A stretch of DNA of 64,000 nucleotides from Candidatus Hermodarchaeota archaeon (GTDB taxonomy: Archaea; Asgardarchaeota; Lokiarchaeia; Sigyniarchaeales; SOKP01). Shown here piece by piece: positions 2,167 through 52,904 of this stretch (its first letter is position 1; each line of letters begins with the position of its first letter). The notes under the pieces are model-generated. The model did not search any database. It was not told where the DNA came from and worked only from the letters and a program-made list of their open reading frames with translations. The stretch spans positions 1 to 64,000 of the forward strand of contig JBHLLP010000006.1 in assembly GCA_048885525.1 (NCBI GenBank), read 5' to 3'. A program made the translations under genes and the position numbers.

Positions 2167-2916
2167 TTAATTAAAAGAAATAAATCCAAGTTTAATGAGA
2201 TTTTTACATACATTATAAACTTGATTTTGATTTAAATTTAAATACTGAGCAATTTGATTAATTGATTTTTTTCCATTTATTTGCTCGTAAACCTTACAAG
2301 AAGAATCTCCTGTTAAGTAGTATTTAGGATTAATTTTTTTAGAGGTTGTGAAATTGGGAATATAACCATAGAATTCGGGAGTCTCTTCTACATATTCTAC
2401 CTCTTTTTTATACTCTAACGGTTTTATATCATCAACTACAAAACTATTGAAAAATTCAAATATTTTATTGTTTGTTTCATCTTGATTTTTTCTATTTTCT
2501 TCTTCAAGAAATCTTTTAACAACATTTTCAAATGGTTTAAAATAATCTAGCTTTCCATTCCAGTTTGAAATTTGATCAATACTGAACTCATTCAAAAAAC
2601 TATTGGAAATTTTATGTAGAGTTTGTTGAACTTCTGTTAATTCTGATTTACTGTCATATGTAGCAAGATAGATTAAATCTGGTATATTTGAATCTTTTAA
2701 GAACGATACATTTAAATTATTATTTGATAATTTCAACTCAGAAATGGTTCCCATTTCATCAAATGAATCTGAAAAAGAATTCAATGCTGAAAAAAATCCA
2801 GATATCATAATGAGATCATCTTCTTGAGAAAGAAGATTTTTAATATTTGAATTTGAAAAATTCTTTGAGAATAAAGGTAATCCATCTTTAATTATTATAA
2901 CGTCGCAAATCATCAA
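2167..2916 (-). CDS. longin-like domain plus C-terminal winged helix (NPRL2-like architecture)
   Basis: N-terminal IIKDGLPLFSK...MISGFFSALNSFS...NWNGKLDYFKPFE pattern typical of Asgard longin domains; C-terminal INGKKSINQIA...VCKNLIKLGFISF winged helix. Confidence 0.75.
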   Translation of the reverse strand: MMICDVIIIKDGLPLFSKNFSNSNIKNLLSQEDDLIMISGFFSALNSFSDSFDEMGTISELKLSNNNLNVSFLKDSNIPDLIYLATYDSKSELTEVQQTLHKISNSFLNEFSIDQISNWNGKLDYFKPFENVVKRFLEEENRKNQDETNNKIFEFFNSFVVDDIKPLEYKKEVEYVEETPEFYGYIPNFTTSKKINPKYYLTGDSSCKVYEQINGKKSINQIAQYLNLNQNQVYNVCKNLIKLGFISFN

Positions 2917-3051
2917 TCTCAGAAATTAATCTCTCATATATTTAAAAATGTTTAAAAGTCATTTAATGATTTATAAGTATCTATTTAATTGAAAAAAAAA
3001 AGAATTATAATACATCTGTGATATCAGTGTAATATAACTAATCAATATATT

Positions 3052-4158
3052 ATGATTCACATACGAGCCCCCGGACGGATTACTCTATTTGGCGAACACC
3101 AAGATTACTTGCTCTATCCTACAATTTCCATGGCAATATCGAAATACATATATTTAGAAGCAAAAAAGATATCTAGACCATATCTTTCAATAGAACTTTT
3201 AGATTTAAATGAAAGTTATGAAATCAAATTAAATAATAAAGAATTGGAATATTTATCATATAGAGATTATCTCAGGAGTGCATATAATCAATGTATACGA
3301 AAAGGTTTTAGATTTCAAAGTGGGTATAATATTAAAATTACTGGAGACATCCCTATTAATGCAGGAGCTGCAAGTTCCTCAGCACTAGTTATAGCTTGGT
3401 TATTTTTTCTAAATTTAATCAGCATGGATCGTAAAAGAATAAATAGATTTCAATTATCATTAATGGGTTATGATACAGAAGTAAAAGAATTTAATGAAGC
3501 CGGCGGAATGATGGATCATTTTACTTCTGTTTATGGTGGACTAATATATTTAGAACAAAAAAAAAATCGACCTACAGTAATTAATAAAAATATAAAATTT
3601 GATGGTTTTGTTCTGGGTAATTCCTTAGAAAAAAAAGAAACTGTGGAAGATCTATTTAGAGTTAAAGACATTACAAAAAAGGCATTTATGGCAATTAAAA
3701 GAGTTATGCCAAAATTTAACCGATACATCTCTTCATTAGAAGAAATAAAGGAATATTTACCTAATCTTAAAAAAGAATATCAGAAAAAAATAATTGGAAA
3801 TATCATTAATCGTGATATAACTATTGAGGCAAGAAAATTGATATTTAATGGCTTTTTTAATGAAGAAATTAAAGATAATAGGTTTAGAAACAATTTCTAT
3901 ATGAGACTAGGAACTTTATTGAATATGCATCATTATCAATTAAGAGAGAATATTGAAGTATCAACAGAAAAAATTGATAAAATGATATTAAATTGCGTAG
4001 AAACAGGTGCGTTAGGAGCAAAAATTAATGGTTCTGGCTTTGGAGGTACTATGTTTGCGTTTTTTCCTGATAATGAAGATCGACTTGTTAGGGTTATCGA
4101 AAAAATAGGTGGAGAAGCATTTAAAATAGAAACAAGTAGTGGTGTGGAGATCTATTGA
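3052..4158 (+). CDS. GHMP-family sugar kinase (galactokinase-like)
   Basis: APGRITLFGEHQDY, PINAGAASSSA, GMMDH and GAKINGSGFGG motifs. Confidence 0.9.
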   Translation: MIHIRAPGRITLFGEHQDYLLYPTISMAISKYIYLEAKKISRPYLSIELLDLNESYEIKLNNKELEYLSYRDYLRSAYNQCIRKGFRFQSGYNIKITGDIPINAGAASSSALVIAWLFFLNLISMDRKRINRFQLSLMGYDTEVKEFNEAGGMMDHFTSVYGGLIYLEQKKNRPTVINKNIKFDGFVLGNSLEKKETVEDLFRVKDITKKAFMAIKRVMPKFNRYISSLEEIKEYLPNLKKEYQKKIIGNIINRDITIEARKLIFNGFFNEEIKDNRFRNNFYMRLGTLLNMHHYQLRENIEVSTEKIDKMILNCVETGALGAKINGSGFGGTMFAFFPDNEDRLVRVIEKIGGEAFKIETSSGVEIY

Positions 4159-43792: not shown

Positions 43793-45946
43793 ATGCAAAA
43801 AGAGCCTCTACAATATATAAATGGACTATTTTTAAAAAAAAATCAAATTTTGTGGAGAGATTATCAAAGAAATATTGTTAATAGCTGTAAAAATAAAAAT
43901 TCTTTAGTTGTTTTACCAACAGGTTTAGGAAAAACAATTATAGGTATTTTATTAATTTCTCATTGCTTGAAAAAATATTCAAAAGCAAAAATTATTATTC
44001 TTGCTCCTACGCGACCATTAGTTTCACAGCATAGGGCTTCATGTAAGAGATTTCTTGACATTGATTTAGAAAATATTACTTCATTTACAGGAAAAATATC
44101 TCCAGAAAAAAGAATCCTATTATTTAAAAGTTCAAGAATAATAATATCTACACCACAAGTAATCAAAAATGATTTGATGAGAGGCAGATATGAATTAAGT
44201 AAAGTATCATTAATAATATTCGATGAAGCTCATAAGACTAAAGGAAATTATGCGTACAATTTTATTTCAGAAGAATATATTAATAATTGTACAGATCCCT
44301 TAATCTTAGGATTAACAGCCTCACCAGGAAAGGATTATGAACACATTCAACAAATATGTGATAACTTATATATTGAGAATATCGTTTTTAAAAGTTATCA
44401 AGATAAAGACGTTAAGGATTATATTTATGACATCGATACTTATATCAATTTAATTGATTTACCCGTTAAAATAAGGGAATTAAGTGCTGTTTGGTATAAT
44501 TTATTTGAAATTTATTTAAGATTTTTTATAAAGAATAATTTAATTCCCCCAAATAAACCATTTTATTCAAAATTAGATTTTTTAGGAATATCTCGTGATT
44601 TAACAATTTCTTTACACTATGAAAAAGATAATCAATTTGATTTATCTGAAGATGAATATTTAGATTGTTTATATTACAAATCTCCAAAAATAATTGATAT
44701 CGTTAAAGAAAATCAACTTGATATTCCTTCTGTATACTCTTATTGTTCAAGTTGTATATCCATACTTCATGCTAAAGATTTGTTAGAAACACAAGATATA
44801 TCTCTCTTTAAATCTTTTTTAGATAAAATTAAGTATAAAACAGATAAAGATATCTTATCAGCTAAAAGAATTGTGAATTCAGAGCATTTTAATCACATCA
44901 TTTCTGTAATTGAAAATGAAGAACAAATTACTCTTTCTCATCCTAAATTAAAACAGATTAATTCCATAATTAAAGAGGAAATTGAAGAATTTAGTAATAA
45001 AAAAATTCTGATCTTTACACAATACCGTGAAATGGCAGAACTTCTTAAGAAAAAGTTGCAAAAGGACTTTTATGGACAACTTAAAATTGAAAAATTTATT
45101 GGCCAAGCAACTAAAAAAGAAGATTATGGATTTCCCCAAAGTTTACAAATAGAGATCTTACAAAAATTCAGAGATGGAGATATAAATATATTGATTGCCA
45201 CAAGTGTCGCTGAAGAAGGATTAGATATCCCAAATGTGGATGCCATTATTTTTTTCGAACCTATTCCTTCAGAAATCCGATTAATTCAAAGACGAGGAAG
45301 AACTGGAAGATATTCTCCGGGAAGGTGTTATATACTTATAACTGAAGAATCAGTTGATATCCCATTTCATATTGTTGCTAGACGAAAAGAACATTCAATG
45401 AACTCAGTATTATCTAATCAAAAGCAATTGAAATTAATAAGTACTTTAGAACGCGAAAGAATTGATTTCTCTATCCAAAAAAATCAATATGTTGACTCAC
45501 AATTTACAAAAAATTTTAGAGAAAGAAAAGATTTAGAAGAAATTTATTTAGCAAACCATTCTATCGAAGAAATTATTACCCAAATAGATAATTTCTGTAA
45601 TAGTGAAGATTATAAAAATCTTAGAGATTGTGGAATAACATTTTATTCAGATTTTATAAAGTTTGATAAACATTTCTTAAAAGAAAAAATTATAAAATTT
45701 AAAAAAAGAAGATTAAAGTCACCTAATCACCAAAAAGTCTATTTAAATAAACATATAAAAGCATTGATAAATATAGTTAAAATCTTTGGCATTAATGGAT
45801 TATTAGACTACAAAAAATTTCAAGAACTTGCACGTGATGAAGATATCATTGATCAAAAGTTTAATACCCATTTCAACCAAGCATGTTTTCTTGGATATCT
45901 TAGAAAACTAGATAATTCTGTCCAATTTATTATGGATTATGATTAA
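43793..45946 (+). CDS. hef: Hef/FANCM/Mph1-family SF2 helicase
   Basis: LPTGLGKT, DEAH, GLTASPG, ATSVAEEGLDIP, QRRGRTGR. Confidence 0.92.
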   Translation: MQKEPLQYINGLFLKKNQILWRDYQRNIVNSCKNKNSLVVLPTGLGKTIIGILLISHCLKKYSKAKIIILAPTRPLVSQHRASCKRFLDIDLENITSFTGKISPEKRILLFKSSRIIISTPQVIKNDLMRGRYELSKVSLIIFDEAHKTKGNYAYNFISEEYINNCTDPLILGLTASPGKDYEHIQQICDNLYIENIVFKSYQDKDVKDYIYDIDTYINLIDLPVKIRELSAVWYNLFEIYLRFFIKNNLIPPNKPFYSKLDFLGISRDLTISLHYEKDNQFDLSEDEYLDCLYYKSPKIIDIVKENQLDIPSVYSYCSSCISILHAKDLLETQDISLFKSFLDKIKYKTDKDILSAKRIVNSEHFNHIISVIENEEQITLSHPKLKQINSIIKEEIEEFSNKKILIFTQYREMAELLKKKLQKDFYGQLKIEKFIGQATKKEDYGFPQSLQIEILQKFRDGDINILIATSVAEEGLDIPNVDAIIFFEPIPSEIRLIQRRGRTGRYSPGRCYILITEESVDIPFHIVARRKEHSMNSVLSNQKQLKLISTLERERIDFSIQKNQYVDSQFTKNFRERKDLEEIYLANHSIEEIITQIDNFCNSEDYKNLRDCGITFYSDFIKFDKHFLKEKIIKFKKRRLKSPNHQKVYLNKHIKALINIVKIFGINGLLDYKKFQELARDEDIIDQKFNTHFNQACFLGYLRKLDNSVQFIMDYD

Positions 45947-45997: not shown

Positions 45998-48900
45998 CTA
46001 TTTTATTTTACCTTCTTTTCCTTTTCTCAAGAAATAAAATATTAGGATAAGAGTTGTAATTATTATCGGAATAGTTATAATTACTGGATTACCCCCACTA
46101 AAAAGGAATAAATAATATGAAATAGTAACAATTGAGGCAAAAAATGCGATGATACTACCATATTGACTCGCAAAATTCCTTAAATGCCGTAAAATCATAT
46201 TTAGTTTATAATTGGTATTTTTGATTACTTCCAATTCAGTTTCATCAATTTCATCTAATACATCTGGATTTTCATAATATATTGATAACAGTGGATTATA
46301 TTTTCCCTTTATTTCTCCAGCACTTATTAGAAATAATAGATGATCTTGTATATTTTGTTTTTTTATTTTAAGTTCATTGTTCAAGAATCCAACTGTTAAA
46401 TATTCATTTGCAACGGCCTTTATAGTCATATTGATGTATGATTTTAATATAAACCGCTCTAATGCTTTAACTTTTTCATTTAGAATTTCTGAAAATTCAT
46501 CTATAAATCTGTTAAAATCTTCAAGAATAAATTTTGATATTTGACTAAAATTTTTTGATTGCTTAGAAAAATCTTTGAATGTTGTTTCCATGTCTCTTTT
46601 AATCTTATTTATCTCGGAATCAATACTTTTTGCTCTTTTTTGAATCAAAATATTACTTTTCTTAAATTCTTTAATTTCTATATTATCCTCCACTTTTCTT
46701 TCTAAATTACCCAGTAATTGACTTAAATATATTTTATTTTTATTAACAAGAGTCAATAATTGTTCACGGAATGATTCATTCTTCATTGATATTATCTGGT
46801 CACTAATCTTTTGAATTTTGCTGTTATACTCATTAGAAAAATTATTTTTTGCTTTCACATACAACTCTCTAATTTCAGGTACTAATTTAGCTAAATCTCC
46901 AGTATTGCGTAATAAAGCATTTATTTTAACTTCAATTTTTTCTTGAGATTGTTTCAGATTATCCTTAAAGTCTTGCTCCCTATTTTCAAAGTTTTCCTGA
47001 ATCTTTATATAGTCCTCGTGATCTTCCGCTCTTTTAAAAACTTTAGTAGTATATTCCTTTAATTCAATATTTAAGGAATTAAATTTCTGGTCTATAAATG
47101 ATTGTATTTTATTGAATTGCTTTAAATTATTTTTAATATTTTTTATAGCAGCTCTTTCATTCTCTAAAATTGATTCAAAATATTCTTTAGTCTCAAAGAA
47201 TTCTTCTCTTTCTTGATTTATCTGAAGTTCTTTTACTTTTTCATAGAATTGTTTCGGTAGAACATCTTCAAAAATCTTTAAATCCTTAATTCTGTTTTGA
47301 AGCTCTAACATATTTATATTTAGTGTTCTATTTCTAATACTCGAATCATATAAGGAAAGAATTTTTCCGATTCTTGCCCTATTTAATTTTAATAAATTAT
47401 TATCTATATAATTTTTAAGTTCTTTATTCAAGTAATAAAAATCTGTGAATATCAAAATATATTTTTCCTTTTCGTTAAGTTCTGCATTGATTTTTGAAAT
47501 TTCAATCATAGTTTTTAACTGATCAATAAGAACTTTACATGATAATTTAACTTCATCCTTTAAATCGCTTAATTTTATATTATTAGTCCTTTTCTCAATT
47601 GCCAATGCATTTATTTTATTTGAGATGATATTGTTTATAGCTTCGTTTTTTAATTCTGAAATTTCATTAATAAAAAAATCATTAAATTTTTCCCATTGAA
47701 TAATGCTTAATTCTGATTCTCCATTAAAGTTCTCAATATTTTTACGACATTCATTTAACTTTTTTTGGTATATCTTATTTATTTTATTGAAATCAGTTTG
47801 GAGTGAGTCAAATTCTTTCATAGCTTCTTCGATTTTTAAACTTTTATAACGATCTAAATTTTTCTTAACCTCATTTAATTGAGATTTAAATTTTAGACTC
47901 TCTTGAGAAATAAAATTATCAAAATCTTCTATTCTCGCTCGATTTCTTTCTTCTATAATTTTTTTCTTTAAATTTTTTACTTGATTTGCAATTATTTCGA
48001 TTATATTGGATTCTAACTTTTCCAGGCTATCTTGAAGATGGTGAAAGAGTAAATATAACTTCTGCTTTTTTTTAATTTCTTGCTTTATTATGGATTGAAG
48101 TTCTTTAATTTCATTTAACCTCTCGTTCATTAAAATTTCTGACTCTTTCTTAGTAAAACTAAAAGCATCCTGAAATTCATTTTCTAAAATTTTGTTTTTA
48201 GCCTTTTCCTCAATTTGTTTAATATCAATTTGTATTTTATGATTAATCTCTTCAATCTTCTTTAAATTAACATTGAAAAATTGAAAACCGTCAGTATAGA
48301 AACTGAATTCATTATCAAACTGATCTTTAATTCTTAACCACTTATCAATTACCTTTTTATGTTTTTTTACTACTTTTCTTTCTTTAGGGGTAATTTTTTG
48401 AGAGATTTTATAAATTTTATCATCATATTTCCTAATATTTTGAGAGATGCTATCCAGATTATGAATTATGAGACTTAATTTTTCGGGATCATATTCTTTT
48501 TCAAGAATTTCGCAAAAAACCCTTCTAAAGGAATCCAGCTTTTTATCTATATCTTCATCAATGATATCTATTTTTTCTTGAAGATTTTCTAGTAGAATCT
48601 TTAAATTTCTTACTTTCTCTTTTTCCTGGATCTTACTTTTTAAATATGATTCTACTTCTGATAACCTTTTTTGTAAAATCGAGTATACTTTGTTCCATTT
48701 TGAAATTTCTGAGCCTAAACTAGTTTGCATGTTAATATAATAAAATTCCTCATAAAATGAGTTTTCAATGTTCTCATTCAAAAAATCTGCTTCCATTAAT
48801 GCATTTCTAATGACAAATTTTAATCTCTCTTTAGCATACTCAATCTCATTAATTAAAAGATAACTATCTATTTCTTCTCGTATCTGAGAAGTTGCTCTTT

Positions 48901-50467
48901 CTAATTTTAACGTCATATTAAAAATATCATTTTTAATATCCTCCAATTTTTCTTTTTCTTCATATAATCTCTCAACATTCAAATCCATATCAGATACAAT
49001 TATTCTTTTAAAAAAATAATTTAAATAGAAGAAATATTTAGTTTTAATACCTAGGAACACTTTTTTCGTTCTAATATCACCGTTAAAAAACCTTTTCTCA
49101 ACCATATCTTTAATTATTGGAAAGACCTCTTCCTTTAACTTCAAGGGTTCATAATAGAGGGCTCTATATCTTTTATGAATATCAGAAAGAGAAACTATAC
49201 TATTATTTATTAGTTTATTATAGAAATTTTGAAAAAATTCTTTTTTTCCATGACTAAAATTACTAATATAATTCTTAAATTCAATTTCATTGTTTAAAAT
49301 GCGTAAATTAAAATTATAGTTTAAATTAATATATGAAATAAGGTCATTAGTATATTCTTCTAAACCGAAGGTGGATTTTAATTGATTTACATCAATAAAT
49401 TTATCTTTTTCTATTTGCTTAAAAAGTAATCTTTCAATTTCGCCAATAAATTTCTTCCAAATAAGCGATAGAAGAATTATTAACTTAGATACATCACATA
49501 ATTTGTCAGAATTCCAGTTATCGCGATTATTAAGTACTTCTTTTAATTTTTTATTTATGAAAGAAAAAATTCCAGCAGGATTATAATCCAACATCCAAGA
49601 ATATAACTCTAGGATATAAACTACCCAAAAAGTGATTTCTATATTATCTGATTGATTAAAACTAAATCCACCATTCTCTTTCTGAAATTGTTGAAGGGAT
49701 TGGATTTCTTTCTCTTTTATTTCTAAATCTAAATCTAAAAACTTAAGACAAAGAAATCTAAAAATTAAAGAGGTTCCTCTTTTTTTATCTCCTAGATATA
49801 ATCTAAATTGGTTCTTATTAATGCGTATGTCTATATTCAGAAGTGAAAAGATTTCCAAGGCGTAGTATAGTGTTCGAGCAGGGGAAATATTTTTATCGAT
49901 TTCACATTCATTATCATGGCAATGTAGAAATTTATTACTTTTCTTATGGGATAAGATAAAATTTTTAATTTCTCCTTTTTTTTGATCCTGACCCTCAGAA
50001 CTCAGATATTGTTTTAATAATCCTAAATTCTTTAGACAAGTTAAGGCTAGATATGTAGAAAATATATCGGGAAGTTTATCAGATTGTGGAGTTTGTTTGA
50101 ATCCTAATTGTTCGTTTTGATGAATTTCACATTTCTTTATGAAATTAAAGATTTCATCTCTATTTATTCTTTTTTCTTCTTTAAGATATTTCCTTAGTAA
50201 TAAAAACCAAAAAATAGTCTCTAAATTTACGTTAGGGGTATTTAACAAGTTTTTATTAAAATATTCATAGAATTCAACTAGTCTATCATGTTCTTTATAA
50301 TAAAAATTCCTAATATCTCTTTTTTTAACTCTTATAAATGACTTAAATGGTTCTTTTTTAAATTTTGTAATATATGGATAAGCAGATTTCTCTTCCACAT
50401 TAAACAATATTAAACAAATCCCTAGAATGATTATACTAATTTTTGTAAATAATGAAAATATAAACAT
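45998..50467 (-). CDS. giant membrane-anchored protein: prenyltransferase-like repeats, coiled coil, PCI-like winged helices
   Basis: N-terminal TM; QKENGGF-type repeats; long K/E/L heptad region; winged-helix segments; two C-terminal TM helices. Confidence 0.8.
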   Translation of the reverse strand: MFIFSLFTKISIIILGICLILFNVEEKSAYPYITKFKKEPFKSFIRVKKRDIRNFYYKEHDRLVEFYEYFNKNLLNTPNVNLETIFWFLLLRKYLKEEKRINRDEIFNFIKKCEIHQNEQLGFKQTPQSDKLPDIFSTYLALTCLKNLGLLKQYLSSEGQDQKKGEIKNFILSHKKSNKFLHCHDNECEIDKNISPARTLYYALEIFSLLNIDIRINKNQFRLYLGDKKRGTSLIFRFLCLKFLDLDLEIKEKEIQSLQQFQKENGGFSFNQSDNIEITFWVVYILELYSWMLDYNPAGIFSFINKKLKEVLNNRDNWNSDKLCDVSKLIILLSLIWKKFIGEIERLLFKQIEKDKFIDVNQLKSTFGLEEYTNDLISYINLNYNFNLRILNNEIEFKNYISNFSHGKKEFFQNFYNKLINNSIVSLSDIHKRYRALYYEPLKLKEEVFPIIKDMVEKRFFNGDIRTKKVFLGIKTKYFFYLNYFFKRIIVSDMDLNVERLYEEKEKLEDIKNDIFNMTLKLERATSQIREEIDSYLLINEIEYAKERLKFVIRNALMEADFLNENIENSFYEEFYYINMQTSLGSEISKWNKVYSILQKRLSEVESYLKSKIQEKEKVRNLKILLENLQEKIDIIDEDIDKKLDSFRRVFCEILEKEYDPEKLSLIIHNLDSISQNIRKYDDKIYKISQKITPKERKVVKKHKKVIDKWLRIKDQFDNEFSFYTDGFQFFNVNLKKIEEINHKIQIDIKQIEEKAKNKILENEFQDAFSFTKKESEILMNERLNEIKELQSIIKQEIKKKQKLYLLFHHLQDSLEKLESNIIEIIANQVKNLKKKIIEERNRARIEDFDNFISQESLKFKSQLNEVKKNLDRYKSLKIEEAMKEFDSLQTDFNKINKIYQKKLNECRKNIENFNGESELSIIQWEKFNDFFINEISELKNEAINNIISNKINALAIEKRTNNIKLSDLKDEVKLSCKVLIDQLKTMIEISKINAELNEKEKYILIFTDFYYLNKELKNYIDNNLLKLNRARIGKILSLYDSSIRNRTLNINMLELQNRIKDLKIFEDVLPKQFYEKVKELQINQEREEFFETKEYFESILENERAAIKNIKNNLKQFNKIQSFIDQKFNSLNIELKEYTTKVFKRAEDHEDYIKIQENFENREQDFKDNLKQSQEKIEVKINALLRNTGDLAKLVPEIRELYVKAKNNFSNEYNSKIQKISDQIISMKNESFREQLLTLVNKNKIYLSQLLGNLERKVEDNIEIKEFKKSNILIQKRAKSIDSEINKIKRDMETTFKDFSKQSKNFSQISKFILEDFNRFIDEFSEILNEKVKALERFILKSYINMTIKAVANEYLTVGFLNNELKIKKQNIQDHLLFLISAGEIKGKYNPLLSIYYENPDVLDEIDETELEVIKNTNYKLNMILRHLRNFASQYGSIIAFFASIVTISYYLFLFSGGNPVIITIPIIITTLILIFYFLRKGKEGKIK

Positions 50468-50636: not shown

Positions 50637-51248
50637 TTAACGAAAGTGTTTTTTATTTAGATACACAGTTACAGCAGCAAATATAATACCCACAATGATG
50701 AAATAAATAATCATAAGTAATAATGGTGGAGTACTGCTGATATTTAGAAATATATAGAATTCTTTAGACCAACTATTATTTTCATTCAAAGAGGAATCTT
50801 TAGCCCAAACTTGAAAGATATATACTATTCGATTTTGATATAAACTTATATTATTCCAGTTAAAACTCCACTGACTTTCTCCATTATAAATCATAGTTGC
50901 ATTAAATAAGAAACTGGTAGAATTTGATATCTGAATTGTAACATTGCCAAACAAAGGAGGATTATCATCACTTACATTAGCAATAATTTTATAAACTTTC
51001 TTATTTATTACTGAATTGTTGCTGGATGGTTGGAGGAATGTAATAATTGGAGCAGTTGTATCATTCGTAGGACCTTGAGCAAAATATATAGCATTATTAT
51101 TTACATATCCAACAGCTTCCTTTTTAAAATTAAGTAAATGACCGCTAGAATAAGTAATTGTAATTATTATAAACAGAGTTATAATGATAAATGTTTTAAT
51201 TGAACACTTTTTCTTATAATCTTTAAATGCTATTTTCATTATAATCAT
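50637..51248 (-). CDS. membrane-anchored Ig-like surface (glyco)protein
   Basis: N-terminal hydrophobic helix; DTTAPIITF...ANVSD...WAKDSS; many N-x-S/T sequons; C-terminal TM with basic tail. Confidence 0.8.
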   Translation of the reverse strand: MIIMKIAFKDYKKKCSIKTFIIITLFIIITITYSSGHLLNFKKEAVGYVNNNAIYFAQGPTNDTTAPIITFLQPSSNNSVINKKVYKIIANVSDDNPPLFGNVTIQISNSTSFLFNATMIYNGESQWSFNWNNISLYQNRIVYIFQVWAKDSSLNENNSWSKEFYIFLNISSTPPLLLMIIYFIIVGIIFAAVTVYLNKKHFR

Positions 51249-51389: not shown

Positions 51390-52904
51390 TTACAATTGAG
51401 GATTGCCATTAAAACCCCAAGTTTTATTAATTCCTAAATTATCTTGGATTAAGGGTGCTTGAATATCATTTACAGACATCCCTAGTCCTGAAGGGATGAA
51501 ATTTTTAGCATTATTAAAAGCTGTTTCTATAGTCTCACTTTTATTTAATTGATCCCAAAATTGATGAAAAAACCATGATCCCGCAAAGCCATCAGCATTC
51601 AAATTGTCTCGCCAATACCATGAAAAAATATCTGTTGTCGATGTAATTAATATTGAATTGGGTATATTATACCAACTTAGTCCTATACTTGAGTTTTGAT
51701 TTAAAAAATTTCCACTATAACATATATCTATATTGATCAATATACGTCTACAATTAATCTCTTTAACGAGATTAAAAAACTCAATTTCAGTTATATAATT
51801 GCTGTCAGCTTCGAAATGGAAAGTTGCATTCCCATCACCAAGTACTCTATTTGAACCATGGTCTACCATATAAATTATCAGTTGATCTTTTGAATTTATC
51901 TTAGATGCAAAAGAACCGATGACACTAACATTCAATTCTTGCTTAAATCTACTCGAATTCACATCGTCGTTTTCTACATCAATGATAGCACCAGCTAAAT
52001 CATTTGATATTCCATCATTTGCCTTTATATCTATTGTATTATCATCCGTGTGATAGAGCATCAAAAATATATCATCATCAGTATATCCATGATTCTTTAA
52101 AATCCAGTAAACTTGAAGTGCTTGAGCAGGAAAGCCATCTGAATCTATATTACTAGGAAGAGGGCTCGGAATTGGGGGAGGGAACCAATATTCTATCTTT
52201 ACATCATCAAAAAGTACCATGTCGCCCCCAGTCATATTCCCTTCAACTGCTAATACTAAATGTAGTTGAGTTATCTCATTTTGAGTGGAATTATCTGCAA
52301 TACCAGTTGAATTAAGAGATTTCCAACCAATGAAACCTCCTAATGTACCATCTGACCAATCTGTTCTTATTACATCATTACTAGAATTTAACCATCTTAA
52401 TCCTATCCTAGCTCCTGCTCCTGTGCCCGGTAAAATTATAGCGGGATTTATTGGGGGGAAATTAATATTAGTTGTTATATTAACCCAAGCAGAAAGATTA
52501 TATGCGGCAGACTTTATTAATGGATAATACTTTGTCCAATTATAAACCAATTCCATATCAACATATCCTCCCCAAGGTTTAGCAATAAATTGTACAACCC
52601 CAGGAGTATGATAACCTGGTATATTAGCATCAGTTACTATATACCCATTTGGGAAATCTTCGAAAGAGGGCCATCGACCCGTTTCATTACTAAACGTTGA
52701 ATCATCTCCATCATTAAAATCGGGTTGACTATCCTTTCTATAGAAATCATTTGCACTGCATAGGATAATTGCTTTTCGGGCTCCTGGAATTGGTTCTCTT
52801 CGCATGGTAGGAAGATATATTATCCATAAAGAAAGAACTAATACTATACCTATAATAAATGCAAGTAAAGGAATATATTTCTTTGCATTCTTCTTTAAAT
52901 CCAT
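51390..52904 (-). CDS. C13 (legumain/GPI8-like, caspase-fold) peptidase with an inserted beta-sandwich domain
   Basis: YMVDHGS (His) and IDICYSG (Cys) dyad; VYWILKNHGYTDDDIFLMLY; N-terminal TM. Confidence 0.85.
   Translation of the reverse strand: MDLKKNAKKYIPLLAFIIGIVLVLSLWIIYLPTMRREPIPGARKAIILCSANDFYRKDSQPDFNDGDDSTFSNETGRWPSFEDFPNGYIVTDANIPGYHTPGVVQFIAKPWGGYVDMELVYNWTKYYPLIKSAAYNLSAWVNITTNINFPPINPAIILPGTGAGARIGLRWLNSSNDVIRTDWSDGTLGGFIGWKSLNSTGIADNSTQNEITQLHLVLAVEGNMTGGDMVLFDDVKIEYWFPPPIPSPLPSNIDSDGFPAQALQVYWILKNHGYTDDDIFLMLYHTDDNTIDIKANDGISNDLAGAIIDVENDDVNSSRFKQELNVSVIGSFASKINSKDQLIIYMVDHGSNRVLGDGNATFHFEADSNYITEIEFFNLVKEINCRRILINIDICYSGNFLNQNSSIGLSWYNIPNSILITSTTDIFSWYWRDNLNADGFAGSWFFHQFWDQLNKSETIETAFNNAKNFIPSGLGMSVNDIQAPLIQDNLGINKTWGFNGNPQL

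Follow-up and report, generated by a model that had tools for sequence, protein, structure and literature searches.

The window analysed here, a stretch of 64,000 nucleotides, contains on its minus strand a long open reading frame that is rich in Lys, Glu, Ile and Asn (45998..50467; GC content 24-25%) and that encodes 1489 amino acids in its longest form. All peptides quoted in the initial annotation of this DNA are present in the translation. The most likely coding sequence is 45998..50398 (minus strand), which yields 1466 amino acids from the GTG codon at 50398, or 1469 if translation starts from the TTG codon at 50407, with the stop codon at 45998-46000. The window's own protein corresponds to a 1466-residue database record (P0002; six-frame match 46001-50398), whose numbering is used below unless stated otherwise. 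Nearly all of the about 115 full-length homologs start 1-6 residues ahead of a conserved KSAYPYIT motif, and their N-termini cluster at M-x-N-V-E-E-K-S-A-Y or M-E-E-K-S-A-Y. The 23 in-frame codons further upstream (50399..50467, minus strand) are missing, of another length or polar in the homologs (e.g., ...TKNKIIINGN...) and appear, as read from the DNA, to include an A/T-rich TATA-like stretch; they are probably non-coding and represent a 5' UTR or promoter. The N-terminal transmembrane helix previously read from residues 1-23 is therefore an artefact of extending the frame beyond the homolog starts just before AYPYIT, and the protein is not doubly anchored by transmembrane helices, as had been proposed, but singly. 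The genuine N-terminus carries a conserved peptide motif (50333..50392, minus strand; residues 3-22, K-S-A-Y-P-Y-I-T-x-F-K-K-E-P-F-K-S-F), which, of the regions compared, ranks first in mean top-residue frequency (0.76) and has the lowest mean entropy; many members with 20-28% identity still carry it in recognisable form. In the AF2 model, residues 1-13 have a pLDDT below 50.

Full-length collinear orthologs of 1417-1511 amino acids occur in the window's own family (f1) and in the families f3, f5, f6 and f7. Among genomes that are at least 85% complete, they were detected in 105 of 105 genomes of f1, in 8 of 9 of f3 and in 5 of 5 of f5-f7, and in 0 of 148 genomes of other Asgard families. There is usually one copy of the gene per genome. 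Across genera, the proteins share 48-78% identity and are of nearly fixed length (1460-1475 amino acids), and collinear relatives extend down to 20% identity. The gene is real and under strong constraint, near-universal in one Asgard class, the Lokiarchaeia, and absent elsewhere. When 5.8 and 1.84 billion proteins were searched, the only matches were members of the same family, which databases annotate as hypothetical or as 'prenyltransferase/squalene oxidase repeat-containing'; the earlier statement that no characterised protein has this architecture still stands.

The N-terminal part of the protein forms a protein-prenyltransferase-beta-like alpha/alpha toroid (49442..50302, minus strand; residues ~33-319). 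The toroid matches Pfam PF00432 with 41.3 bits (cut-off 26.5) and was modelled by AF2 with a pLDDT of 90.3 and a pTM of 0.87; 30 of 31 homologs also match PF00432. The top Foldseek matches were GGTase-II/III, GGTase-I and FTase beta, and the nearest shapes in the ESM-Atlas were GGTase-II beta clusters. VIA comparisons placed the beta subunits of CaaX prenyltransferases at Z 20-22 (rmsd 2.8-3.4 over 258-269 residues, 17-18% identity) and terpene cyclases in the next tier at Z 15; of these GGTase-I and FTase beta subunits, 3dra_B gave a Z of 22.3 (rmsd 3.4, 269 aligned), and 1n4p_B and 2zir_B gave 21.8 and 21.5, respectively. The alpha/alpha repeats recognised in the initial annotation are thus borne out by AF2, VIA and PF00432 alike. 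It had also correctly noted that a D-x-C-Y zinc site is lacking. The positions of the prenyltransferase Zn triad are not conserved: in the family alignment, the columns matching D-x-C vary between N, D, S and E, and the second half of the toroid has no conserved His or Cys. Moreover, no PPTA alpha-subunit repeats were found in the 99.3%-complete genome. A loop of the toroid contains a candidate metal site, H159-C160-x4-C165-x2-C/D168 (49895..49924, minus strand), which is distinct from the prenyltransferase Zn triad. The His and the first two Cys residues are present in 137, 137 and 136 of 139 members, respectively, and position 168 is a Cys in 104 and an Asp in 28 of them. The cluster is kept in most members at 20-28% identity; among the 22%-identity members, two lack it altogether and one has only part of it. 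This conserved cluster would be compatible with catalysis or with the sensing of a metal. The toroid is followed by a long connecting helix and a small helix/strand subdomain (49265..49441, minus strand; residues ~320-378), which AF2 models with pLDDT above 90 (helices 297-332, 337-344, 347-360 and 370-378, strand 365-369).

Three winged helices are distributed along the chain, all with the H-S-H-H-S-S fold in the AF2 models. The first one, WH1 (48992..49252, minus strand; residues 383-469), consists of the helices 383-398, 404-413 and 421-434 and the strands 401-403, 438-446, 453-462 and 465-469. Its profile gave just a weak match (E 0.003), namely to residues 195-239 of the DDRGK1-UFL1 fusion chain 8b9x_A, and a PCI match at E<=1 was obtained in 4 of 41 members. 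WH2 (47444..47581, minus strand; residues 940-985) is of the PCI/DDRGK1 type. Searching PDB sequences with its profile retrieved DDRGK1 (2.9e-7; 8c0d_B and 1wi9_A are also among the DDRGK1 matches), Rpn6 (3e-4), eIF3e (2e-3) and CSN2 (9e-3), and the same position in the ortholog P0118 matches Pfam PCI with 35.6 bits. WH3 (46274..46402, minus strand; residues 1333-1375) is PCI-type as well and is paired with WH2 by hhalign at 96%. At this position, Pfam PCI is above cut-off in orthologs (26-41 bits) and matches 37 of 41 members at E<=1 (best 9.5e-7); with 13.4 bits, the copy in the window itself stays below the cut-off. The multiple PCI-like winged helices of the initial annotation could thus be confirmed as three winged helices by AF2, the PCI type holding for WH2 and WH3, whose counterparts in orthologs match PF01399 above cut-off.

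The regions between the winged helices are two rods, Rod 1 with the repeats R1-R4 (47591..48979, minus strand; residues 474-936) and Rod 2 with the repeats R5-R7 (46424..47443, minus strand; residues 986-1325). The long coiled coil that had been proposed for this part is rejected because, in the AF2 model (pLDDT 82.7), long (60-74 amino acids) and short (30-36 amino acids) helices alternate as in tandem three-helix bundles, and because these superpose on members of the spectrin family. There are seven spectrin-like bundles of ~108 amino acids each, arranged in two arrays (4 + 3) and joined by continuous helices. In VIA comparisons, Rod 1 aligned with plectin SR7-8 (Z 13.5, 215/229 aligned), with SR7-9 (305 aligned) and with the alpha-actinin rod (423 aligned, model 5-459), and Rod 2 with beta2-spectrin R14-16 (Z 14.0, 312/321 aligned, rmsd 11.5, model 516-845) and alpha-spectrin R15-17 (Z 13.6, 307/317 aligned, rmsd 6.5), whereby Z scores of 13-14 can be reached by helical repeats without kinship. 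With the single spectrin repeat R16, 98 of 98 residues aligned at an rmsd of 3.3. The likeness to spectrin is a structural one, since there was no match to Pfam Spectrin and a profile search of PDB sequences gave no spectrin. Judged by sequence, the repeats are homologous to each other: hhalign related R2 to R4 (92%), R4 to R7 (95%), R3 to R7 (93%) and R6 to R7 (86%), with in-register homology over ~105 columns and Trp/Phe in phase in helix C. The unusually high sequence conservation of the rod suggests that it may be more than a passive spacer. As the pTM of the rod model is 0.37, the orientation of the repeats, the true length and the shape (straight, arched or folded back) are not fixed by the model.

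The C-terminus is a hydrophobic hairpin of two ~20-residue helices with a G-G-N-P turn (46028..46162, minus strand), followed by the basic tail R-K-G-K-E-G-K-I-K (46001..46027, minus strand), as read from the translation. Kyte-Doolittle windows exceed 1.6 at residues 1436-1482 of P0001, where AF2 also predicts helices. The two C-terminal transmembrane helices that had been noted before are supported by this conserved pair, which is kept in all members, including those with 20% identity, and the tail is rich in Lys and Arg throughout the family. The family N-termini have neither a signal nor a transmembrane segment, so the bulk of the protein should be cytoplasmic; applying the positive-inside rule to the basic tail likewise suggests that tail and bulk reside in the cytoplasm.

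Domain order, folds (from AF2 together with fold and HMM matches), repeat homology and the single C-terminal anchor of this uncharacterised family are established, and from here on its function is inferred. We give about even chances to a hairpin-anchored cytoplasmic scaffold or tether of ~40-50 nm with a non-catalytic ligand-binding head. The ~165-kDa protein would be held in the cell membrane by its C-terminal two-helix hairpin, and from the membrane outwards WH3, three bundles, WH2, four bundles and the head would follow, the latter comprising WH1 and the toroid with the conserved N-terminal peptide ahead of it. In alpha-actinin and spectrin, a spectrin-type repeat spans ~5 nm; assuming this value, the scaffold might reach ~40-50 nm into the cytoplasm. 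Because the Zn triad is not conserved and the alpha subunit is absent, the toroid is probably a non-catalytic binding module, the ligand of which could be a hydrophobic molecule such as an isoprenoid or a protein, and the winged helices may provide partner proteins with docking sites or hinges. A long scaffold or tether attached to the membrane, bearing a prenyltransferase-like head and PCI-type winged helices, had already been put forward in the initial annotation; this overall picture fits the anatomy and was retained, the isoprenoid binding and the PCI-type oligomerisation hubs proposed along with it are conjectural, and the double anchor and the coiled coil were abandoned.

In an unlikely alternative, the protein would serve as the membrane receptor arm in a UFL1/DDRGK1-like machine of Asgard archaea. 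By winged-helix pairing and independently of UFM1, it would bring to the membrane a separately encoded UFL1-like protein with multiple winged helices and perhaps also ribosomes or another large cargo. In eukaryotes, DDRGK1 combines a membrane anchor, a long helix and a PCI-like winged helix. Among PDB sequences, WH2 matches the DDRGK1 winged helix best, and the weak WH1 match to 8b9x_A points the same way. Moreover, the genome encodes an 807-amino-acid protein with a PF09743 E3_UFM1_ligase match of 60.8 bits and DDRGK and PCI matches, and such UFL1-like proteins are concentrated in the same class (114 of 134 genomes in f1, 7 of 14 in f3 and 6 of 7 in f5-f7). The work by Picchianti et al. was also counted in favour of this alternative. 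However, the genes are unlinked, and a distribution that both share among close relatives carries no independent weight. PF09756 (DDRGK) missed the rod-protein gene in a six-frame search of the genome and matched just 3 of 41 WH3 segments at E<=1, the WH2 signal is generic PCI-type because it extends to Rpn6, eIF3e and CSN2, the anchor is C-terminal and not N-terminal as in DDRGK1, and Ufm1 was not found in the genome. Quite improbable, too, is a head that acts as a membrane-tethered, metal-dependent isoprenoid enzyme, such as a prenyl transferase or cyclase working on lipids or proteins, with the rod positioning it. Archaeal membranes are isoprenoid-based, the closest structures of the toroid are catalytic beta subunits, and the nearly invariant His/Cys cluster appears, from the motif register, to occupy the same position within a repeat as the D-x-C ligands of FTase beta, but in a different repeat. 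Apart from the non-conserved Zn triad, the missing alpha subunit and the 22%-identity members with no or a partial cluster, inspection of the family consensus and of the invariant residues revealed no DxDD or other cyclase motif, and a conserved 1100-residue rod is hard to account for in a simple enzyme.

C-terminal anchoring is common among archaeal surface proteins, and in the window the rod-protein gene lies near genes for a C13 peptidase and a small membrane protein. Nevertheless, an extracellular stalk or S-layer-associated surface protein is very improbable: signal peptides and N-terminal transmembrane segments are lacking in the family, the basic flanks on both sides of the hairpin and its four-residue loop place the bulk in the cytoplasm, and modules such as PCI-type winged helices and spectrin-like bundles belong in the cytoplasm. 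Furthermore, in a comparison of 15 loci, the C13 peptidase gene adjoins the rod-protein gene in just one (the close relative L014) and lies ~5.7 kb away in L017, the small membrane protein occurs in two (L014 and L027), and the remaining loci have neither. The low GC content and the length and composition of the frame might suggest a chimera of the assembly or, in such AT-rich DNA, a frame that is open by chance. The chance of this is practically negligible, given collinear full-length orthologs in more than 115 independent genomes, single-contig ones included, identities of up to 78%, conserved motifs kept down to 20% identity and confident AF2 models.

Several known systems resemble parts of the proposed scaffold. 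With the beta subunits of GGTase-I, FTase and RabGGTase/GGTase-III, the toroid shares the alpha/alpha fold and Gly-Gly-Phe-type hairpin loops, of which, however, only three are recognisable; it also differs by its own His/Cys cluster and by being fused to a rod, winged helices and a membrane anchor that together span ~1100 residues. This likeness is not specifically eukaryotic, as similar standalone toroids exist in prokaryotes (Bathyarchaeota and Planctomycetota clusters). Spectrin-repeat proteins have units of ~106-110 amino acids, three-helix bundles and continuous-helix linkers in common with the rods, and end-to-end superpositions relate the 3- and 4-repeat arrays to spectrin R14-16 and R15-17, to plectin SR7-9 and to the alpha-actinin rod. 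Nesprins (KASH proteins), which consist of a C-terminal membrane anchor, a spectrin-repeat rod and a distal binding head, even have the same overall plan. In contrast to nesprins, spectrin, alpha-actinin and plakins, the archaeal protein is confined to one class and lacks CH, EF-hand, SH3 and KASH domains; its rods are interrupted by PCI-type winged helices and match neither Spectrin profiles nor spectrin-family PDB chains by sequence, and its anchor is a two-helix hairpin. A comparable prokaryotic membrane-tethered rod is EzrA, a bacterial membrane-anchored regulator of FtsZ, which reportedly consists of cytoplasmic tandem spectrin-like triple-helix bundles with a terminal transmembrane tether. 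EzrA differs by its N-terminal anchor, its five repeats and the lack of a toroid and winged helices; it was absent from the best 50 VIA matches of the rod, and no sequence similarity was found. The DDRGK1/UFBP1-UFL1 pair, the UFM1 E3 scaffold at the ER, shares the membrane anchor, long helix and PCI-like winged helix, whereas the archaeal anchor is at the opposite end and three winged helices are set apart by long rods. The winged-helix subdomain is also common to the PCI subunits of the proteasome lid, the COP9 signalosome and eIF3 (PF01399; Rpn6, eIF3e, CSN2), and CSN2, CSN3 and Rpn proteins are over-represented among the weak Foldseek matches. In contrast to these subunits, the archaeal protein is membrane-anchored, carries three winged helices per chain that are preceded by spectrin-like bundles instead of a TPR-like solenoid, and has no evident MPN partners or lid-like context. 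In its genomic context, the rod-protein gene is on its own: a Hef helicase-nuclease gene in convergent orientation is the one neighbour that recurs, and this probably reflects plain synteny.

The open reading frame at positions 45998-50467 on the reverse strand is present as proposed in the initial annotation: it translates without a stop into 1489 residues (P0001), and all of the peptides that had been quoted from it are found in this translation. The GC content over the giant gene is only 24-25%, and since the window is AT-rich, a long open frame is by itself weak evidence for a gene. When 5.8 billion proteins were searched with a word index, 200 relatives of the giant protein were obtained. 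Of the best 120 among these 200, nearly all have 1460-1504 residues, share 48-78% identity with the query and are collinear with it over 97-100% of its length, which excludes an assembly chimera. The relatives come from metagenome bins of Lokiarchaeota/Promethearchaeota and are annotated only as 'hypothetical protein' or as 'prenyltransferase/squalene oxidase repeat-containing protein'. Moreover, a literature search on Asgard archaea yielded no description of the family.

In the databases, the protein of the window is recorded with 1466 residues beginning at Val24 (P0002). Among about 115 full-length homologs, almost all N-termini lie 1-6 residues ahead of a K-S-A-Y-P-Y-I-T motif, for instance as M-E-E-K-S-A-Y, M-I-N-V-E-E-K-S-A-Y, M-T-N-I-E-H-K-T-A-Y and others alike. 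The few longer homolog records carry extensions of variable length and polar content, such as ...T-K-N-K-I-I-I-N-G-N... in P0004 (78% identical), and a six-frame search of the genomes revealed that the frame stays open for 0 to about 40 codons upstream of the match, differing between genomes. In the DNA of the window, the codons TTG (50407) and GTG (50398) give M-F-N-V-E-E-K... or M-E-E-K..., the two common starts of the homologs, while the ATG at 50467 is located within an A/T-rich stretch that may represent promoter-like sequence. Judged by the homolog starts and the variable polar extensions, the N-terminal transmembrane helix that had been assigned to the protein is an artefact of choosing the longest open reading frame. 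Thus, the giant protein is not doubly anchored by transmembrane helices. The first about 20 residues are the most conserved stretch of the protein (A-Y-P-Y-I-T-x-F-K-K-E-P-F); residues 1-13 are predicted to be disordered, and the A-Y-P-Y-I-T motif is recognisable in many distant members.

The family is confined to the class Lokiarchaeia. A HMMER search with residues 380-1489 against 1.84 billion cluster representatives identified 83 proteins only; the full-length matches (1417-1499 aa) are collinear in every case, with identities down to 20%, and all named matches belong to Promethearchaeota/Lokiarchaeota. The genomes of the phylum were searched in six frames with a profile of the rod and the winged helices, counting only genomes that are at least 85% complete. 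Matches were found in 105/105 genomes of the window's own family (f1), in 8/9, 1/1, 2/2 and 2/2 genomes of the families f3, f5, f6 and f7 of the same class, in 0/1 genomes of f4 and in 0/148 genomes of all other families of the phylum. Within this set of genomes, the giant protein is present in four further families of the class besides its own and in none of the rest of the phylum. The window's genome carries a single copy, as is usual for the other genomes. Full-length orthologs of 1510, 1497 and 1487 aa are encoded by three single-contig f3 genomes of 4.3, 4.4 and 6.0 Mb, which may include those of cultured Lokiarchaeia. A few orthologs are interrupted by stop codons, namely those at G163:C10:76769-81186 (8 mixed stops), on G154:C338 (1 TAG) and on G165:C262 (3 TAA); they show no single-codon pattern and are pseudogenes or assembly errors.

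The only strongly hydrophobic part of the protein in a Kyte-Doolittle analysis, the spurious N-terminal extension aside, is located at residues 1436-1482 of P0001. It consists of two adjacent stretches that are linked by G-G-N-P, followed by a Lys-rich tail and modelled by AF2 as two helices. These two C-terminal hydrophobic helices are conserved in every member, and this half of the proposed double membrane anchorage therefore stands. The features of the giant protein are those of C-terminally hairpin-anchored membrane proteins, i.e. two predicted helices, no other transmembrane segment and basic flanks. As there is no signal peptide, both flanks are basic and the loop comprises only four residues, the 1400-residue N-terminal part should be cytoplasmic according to the positive-inside rule.

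The N-terminal head is an alpha/alpha toroid, as had been proposed from its repeats: PF00432 matches residues 69-213 with 41.3 bits (cut-off 26.5) and also matches 30/31 homologs. For residues 1-500 of P0002, an AF2 model that was built from a 68-sequence alignment reaches a mean pLDDT of 90.3 and a pTM of 0.87. A Foldseek search of the PDB ranked the beta subunits of RabGGTase/GGTase-III, GGTase-I and FTase first (E 3e-5 to 1e-3), with TM scores normalised by target of up to 0.64. Likewise, a comparison with 48,161 chains by VIA-align revealed the closest similarity to GGTase-I beta (3dra_B, Z 22.3, rmsd 3.4, 269 aligned residues; 1n4p_B, Z 21.8) and FTase beta (2zir_B, Z 21.5; 4l9p_B, Z 20.1), with a clear gap to the terpene cyclases at Z about 15 and the thioester domains at Z 13-14. 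A shape search of the ESM Atlas agrees on the toroid and uncovered similar standalone toroids in Bathyarchaeota and Planctomycetota; given these prokaryotic toroids of like shape, the likeness of the head is not specifically eukaryotic. A feature search of the ESM Atlas returned nothing beyond the giant protein's own cluster, and a search for standalone relatives with a 41-sequence toroid profile gave only fragments of the giant-protein family and one weak 553-aa match.

The head shares the fold of the protein prenyltransferase beta subunits, but neither their zinc ligands nor an alpha-subunit partner were found here. At the columns of the G-G-F...T-F-W repeat that correspond to the D-x-C ligands, N/D/S/R/E and N/D/S/E/T occur and Cys never does, where the register follows from the motif and from matching the VIA-align ranges linearly, and not from a structural alignment at the level of residues. 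No conserved His or Cys occurs in the second half of the toroid, and the PPTA repeats of alpha subunits (PF01239) have no match at E<=0.01 in the window's own genome, which is 99.3% complete. The near-invariant His and Cys residues of the toroid are C90, H159, C160 and C165 only, all of which lie in the first half. Of 139 sequences, 136-137 retain H159, C160 and C165 (P0002 numbering), and 104 have Cys and 28 have Asp at position 168; most members at 20-28% identity still show the pattern H-C-x3-4-C-x2-C. The H159/C160/C165 cluster is a candidate metal site of the head's own. The simplest reading of the head is that of a binding module without catalytic function. Beyond the toroid, a helix of 36 residues leads to a small helix/strand subdomain, after which a canonical winged helix (383-469) follows. 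The same genome encodes two more PF00432 toroid proteins of unrelated architecture (loci L030-L034), at G000:C72:2574-3164 (reverse strand, open frame of 971 aa) and at G000:C9:80072-80767 (forward strand, open frame of 384 aa).

The long coiled coil that had been assigned to the central region does not appear in the AF2 model of residues 470-1466 (pLDDT 82.7, helices about 80-90; pTM 0.37, as expected of a rod). Instead of a two-stranded coiled coil, helices of 60-74 and 30-36 residues alternate and are joined by short turns. Such an alternation in the model is typical of three-helix bundles arranged in tandem, with helix C of each one extending into helix A of the bundle that follows. Four repeats (R1-R4, rod 1) are followed by a winged helix, three further repeats (R5-R7, rod 2) and another winged helix. 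Aligned with VIA-align, a method by which helical repeats can reach Z about 13 without kinship, the three-repeat array (model residues 516-848) superimposes end to end on repeats 14-16 of beta2-spectrin (3edv_B, Z 14.0, 312/321 residues, rmsd 11.5) and on repeats 15-17 of alpha-spectrin (1u4q_B, Z 13.6, 307/317 residues, rmsd 6.5). The four-repeat array fits the plectin repeats SR7-8 and SR7-9 with Z 13.5 (5j1g_B) and 12.9, and 423 residues of it could be aligned with the alpha-actinin rod (1hci_A). Single repeats fit individual repeats of spectrin or utrophin, or three-helix bundles obtained by design, with rmsd values of 2.0-3.9. Thus, the modelled rod has the tandem three-helix bundles of about 106 aa that characterise spectrin-repeat proteins.

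At the sequence level, the Spectrin profile (PF00435) has no match in 31 members at E<=0.05, and comparison of the rod profile with PDB sequences returned generic helical proteins but no spectrin-family chain at E<=1. The sequence therefore offers no support for homology to spectrin. Neither CH nor EF-hand domains were detected by Pfam in the giant protein or its homologs, and Foldseek found nothing at E<=1e-3 for the 997-residue rod model. The seven repeats themselves are mutually homologous: hhalign of the seven sub-alignments gave probabilities of 95% for R4 and R7, 93% for R3 and R7, 92% for R2 and R4 and 86% for R6 and R7 over about 100 in-register columns, and in 5/7 repeats a conserved Trp or Phe falls at the same phase where helix C begins. 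The winged helices after rod 1 and rod 2, WH2 and WH3, are related to each other as well, as judged from a probability of 96% in hhalign. It follows from these relationships that the rod grew by duplication of a unit of about 108 residues, possibly in blocks of a repeat plus winged helix. Furthermore, conservation is unusually strong along the whole rod, which suggests extensive contacts, be they between rods or with partner molecules. Two copies of rod 1 (A3 residues 1-470), modelled as a homodimer, scored 0.00, which is evidence neither way.

The winged-helix fold is supported for all three proposed domains, while the PCI-like subtype is not supported for WH1, the winged helix of the head. 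PCI (PF01399) was detected in 16/31 full-length homologs (best 1.1e-8), and in individual orthologs it is located at the position of WH2 (P0118, 35.6 bits) or WH3 (26-41 bits; cut-off 22). A C-terminal winged-helix PCI match is thus shared by orthologs of the family with PCI-domain proteins. WH3 matches PCI at E<=1 in 37/41 members; the window's own copy reaches 13.4 bits, which is below the cut-off, and a Pfam scan of the window's protein gave no PCI match. The affinities of WH1 are weak (8b9x_A residues 195-239 at E 0.003; PCI in 4/41 members). In PCI-domain proteins, the winged helix follows a helical-repeat subdomain of TPR/HAM-like type; in the AF2 model of the giant protein, three-helix bundles precede the winged helices, and the Foldseek matches to CSN2, CSN3 and Rpn proteins are weak (E >1e-3, TM <0.2).

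The best match of the WH2 profile is the winged helix of DDRGK1 (8b9x_A, E 2.9e-7; also 8c0d_B and 1wi9_A), followed by Rpn6 (3e-4), eIF3e (2e-3) and CSN2. In view of this resemblance, the giant protein might act at the membrane as the receptor of a UFL1-like protein. The genome encodes a UFL1-like multi-winged-helix protein with an open frame of 807 aa (contig C70, about 2552-3433, reverse strand; loci L035-L039, L041 and L043), which matches PF09743 (E3_UFM1_ligase) with 60.8 bits, DDRGK with 30 bits and PCI with 35 bits. Such proteins of about 790-810 aa are concentrated in the class of the giant protein, occurring in 114/134 genomes of the window's family and in sister families of the class, and are sporadic elsewhere in the phylum. 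However, the similarity of WH2 is of a generic PCI type, and the two genes are unlinked, being located on different contigs. Moreover, although the similarity to DDRGK1 is real at the level of the winged helix, the DDRGK profile (PF09756) matches only another gene, on C70, in the window's genome and 3/41 WH3 segments at E<=1, and Ufm1 (PF03671) has no match in this genome. A role as receptor for the UFL1-like protein is therefore considered quite improbable.

Most likely, the giant protein serves in the cytoplasm as a scaffold or tether that is anchored by its hairpin. Its plan, with a membrane anchor at one terminus, a rod of spectrin-like repeats and a binding head at the far end, recurs in nesprins and, among prokaryotes, in EzrA. 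A spectrin-type repeat is about 5 nm long, and the four repeats of alpha-actinin span about 24 nm; seven repeats, three winged helices and a head of 6-7 nm would give a reach of about 40-50 nm if the protein were extended. Given the low pTM, the rod could be straight, arched or folded. To our knowledge, Lokiarchaeia are the sole Asgard class with cultured members, and we know of no explanation for how their actin-filled protrusions are attached to the membrane. It is conceivable, but rather unlikely, that the family acts as a skeleton or linker of spectrin type in archaea, joining the Lokiarchaeial cell membrane to an internal structure, be it Lokiactin filaments, the nucleoid or ribosomes, and that it helps to form or stabilise the long protrusions characteristic of cultured Lokiarchaeia. 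In that case, the family would correspond in prokaryotes to linkers of the nesprin/spectrin type, whether by common descent or by convergence, and would combine such a rod with winged helices of the PCI/DDRGK1 type, modules that were later to become signatures of eukaryotes.

It can be stated that the anatomy of the giant protein is solid. All of its parts are known folds; their combination and its restriction to one class are new. A single-copy protein of ~165 kDa joins three fold types that are otherwise best known from eukaryotes, namely the toroid of prenyltransferase beta subunits, repeats like those of spectrin and winged helices of the PCI/DDRGK1 type. With its class-wide occurrence, it is a concrete candidate for a scaffold close to the membrane, and one that is open to testing. 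It also shows that a single archaeal protein can unite spectrin-like bundles in tandem with PCI-type winged helices, which is relevant to the way in which modules of this kind were available before eukaryotes arose. If the single-contig f3 genomes represent cultured strains, localisation and interaction studies would be feasible; if the protein is a passive spacer, its interest would be chiefly structural.

The giant gene appears to stand alone. Upstream of it on the reverse strand, a small membrane protein without family match is encoded at 50637-51248 and a Peptidase_C13 protein (41 bits) at 51390-52904. In a comparison of 15 loci, the peptidase gene directly adjoins the giant gene at L014 alone, a locus of a close relative, and lies ~5.7 kb off at L017, and the small membrane-protein gene was found at L014 and L027; the upstream side of the remaining loci carries a CCG/FAD-binding pair or unrelated genes. 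Both genes thus make up an insert that varies between loci, placed between the CCG/FAD-binding pair and the giant gene, and do not form a conserved module with the latter. In the distant family, unrelated genes of the housekeeping type (amylase, RsmB-like, CBS, FMN reductase, GDPD and Roadblock) are the neighbours. The Roadblock/LC7 gene, seen at L022:6588-7043 (forward strand) in the distant genome G132 and at no other locus examined, is located about 0.7 kb upstream of the ortholog. Several large open reading frames in Lokiarchaeia match the profile of repeats and winged helices in part (E 1e-9 to 1e-20) and may encode paralogous rod/winged-helix proteins; they were found on G125:C315 (1338 aa), G128:C3 (1272 aa), G128:C2 (1291 aa), G174:C2 (1251 aa) and G258:C215 (970 aa). 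Downstream of the giant gene and convergent with it, a DNA-repair gene for a Hef-type helicase-nuclease is located on the opposite strand at 43793-45946 (NF010337, 541 bits, just under the cut-off of 610). It adjoins the ortholog at 10/15 loci, including those of the 25%-identity family, and lies a few kilobases off at two more, a conserved synteny that is probably incidental.
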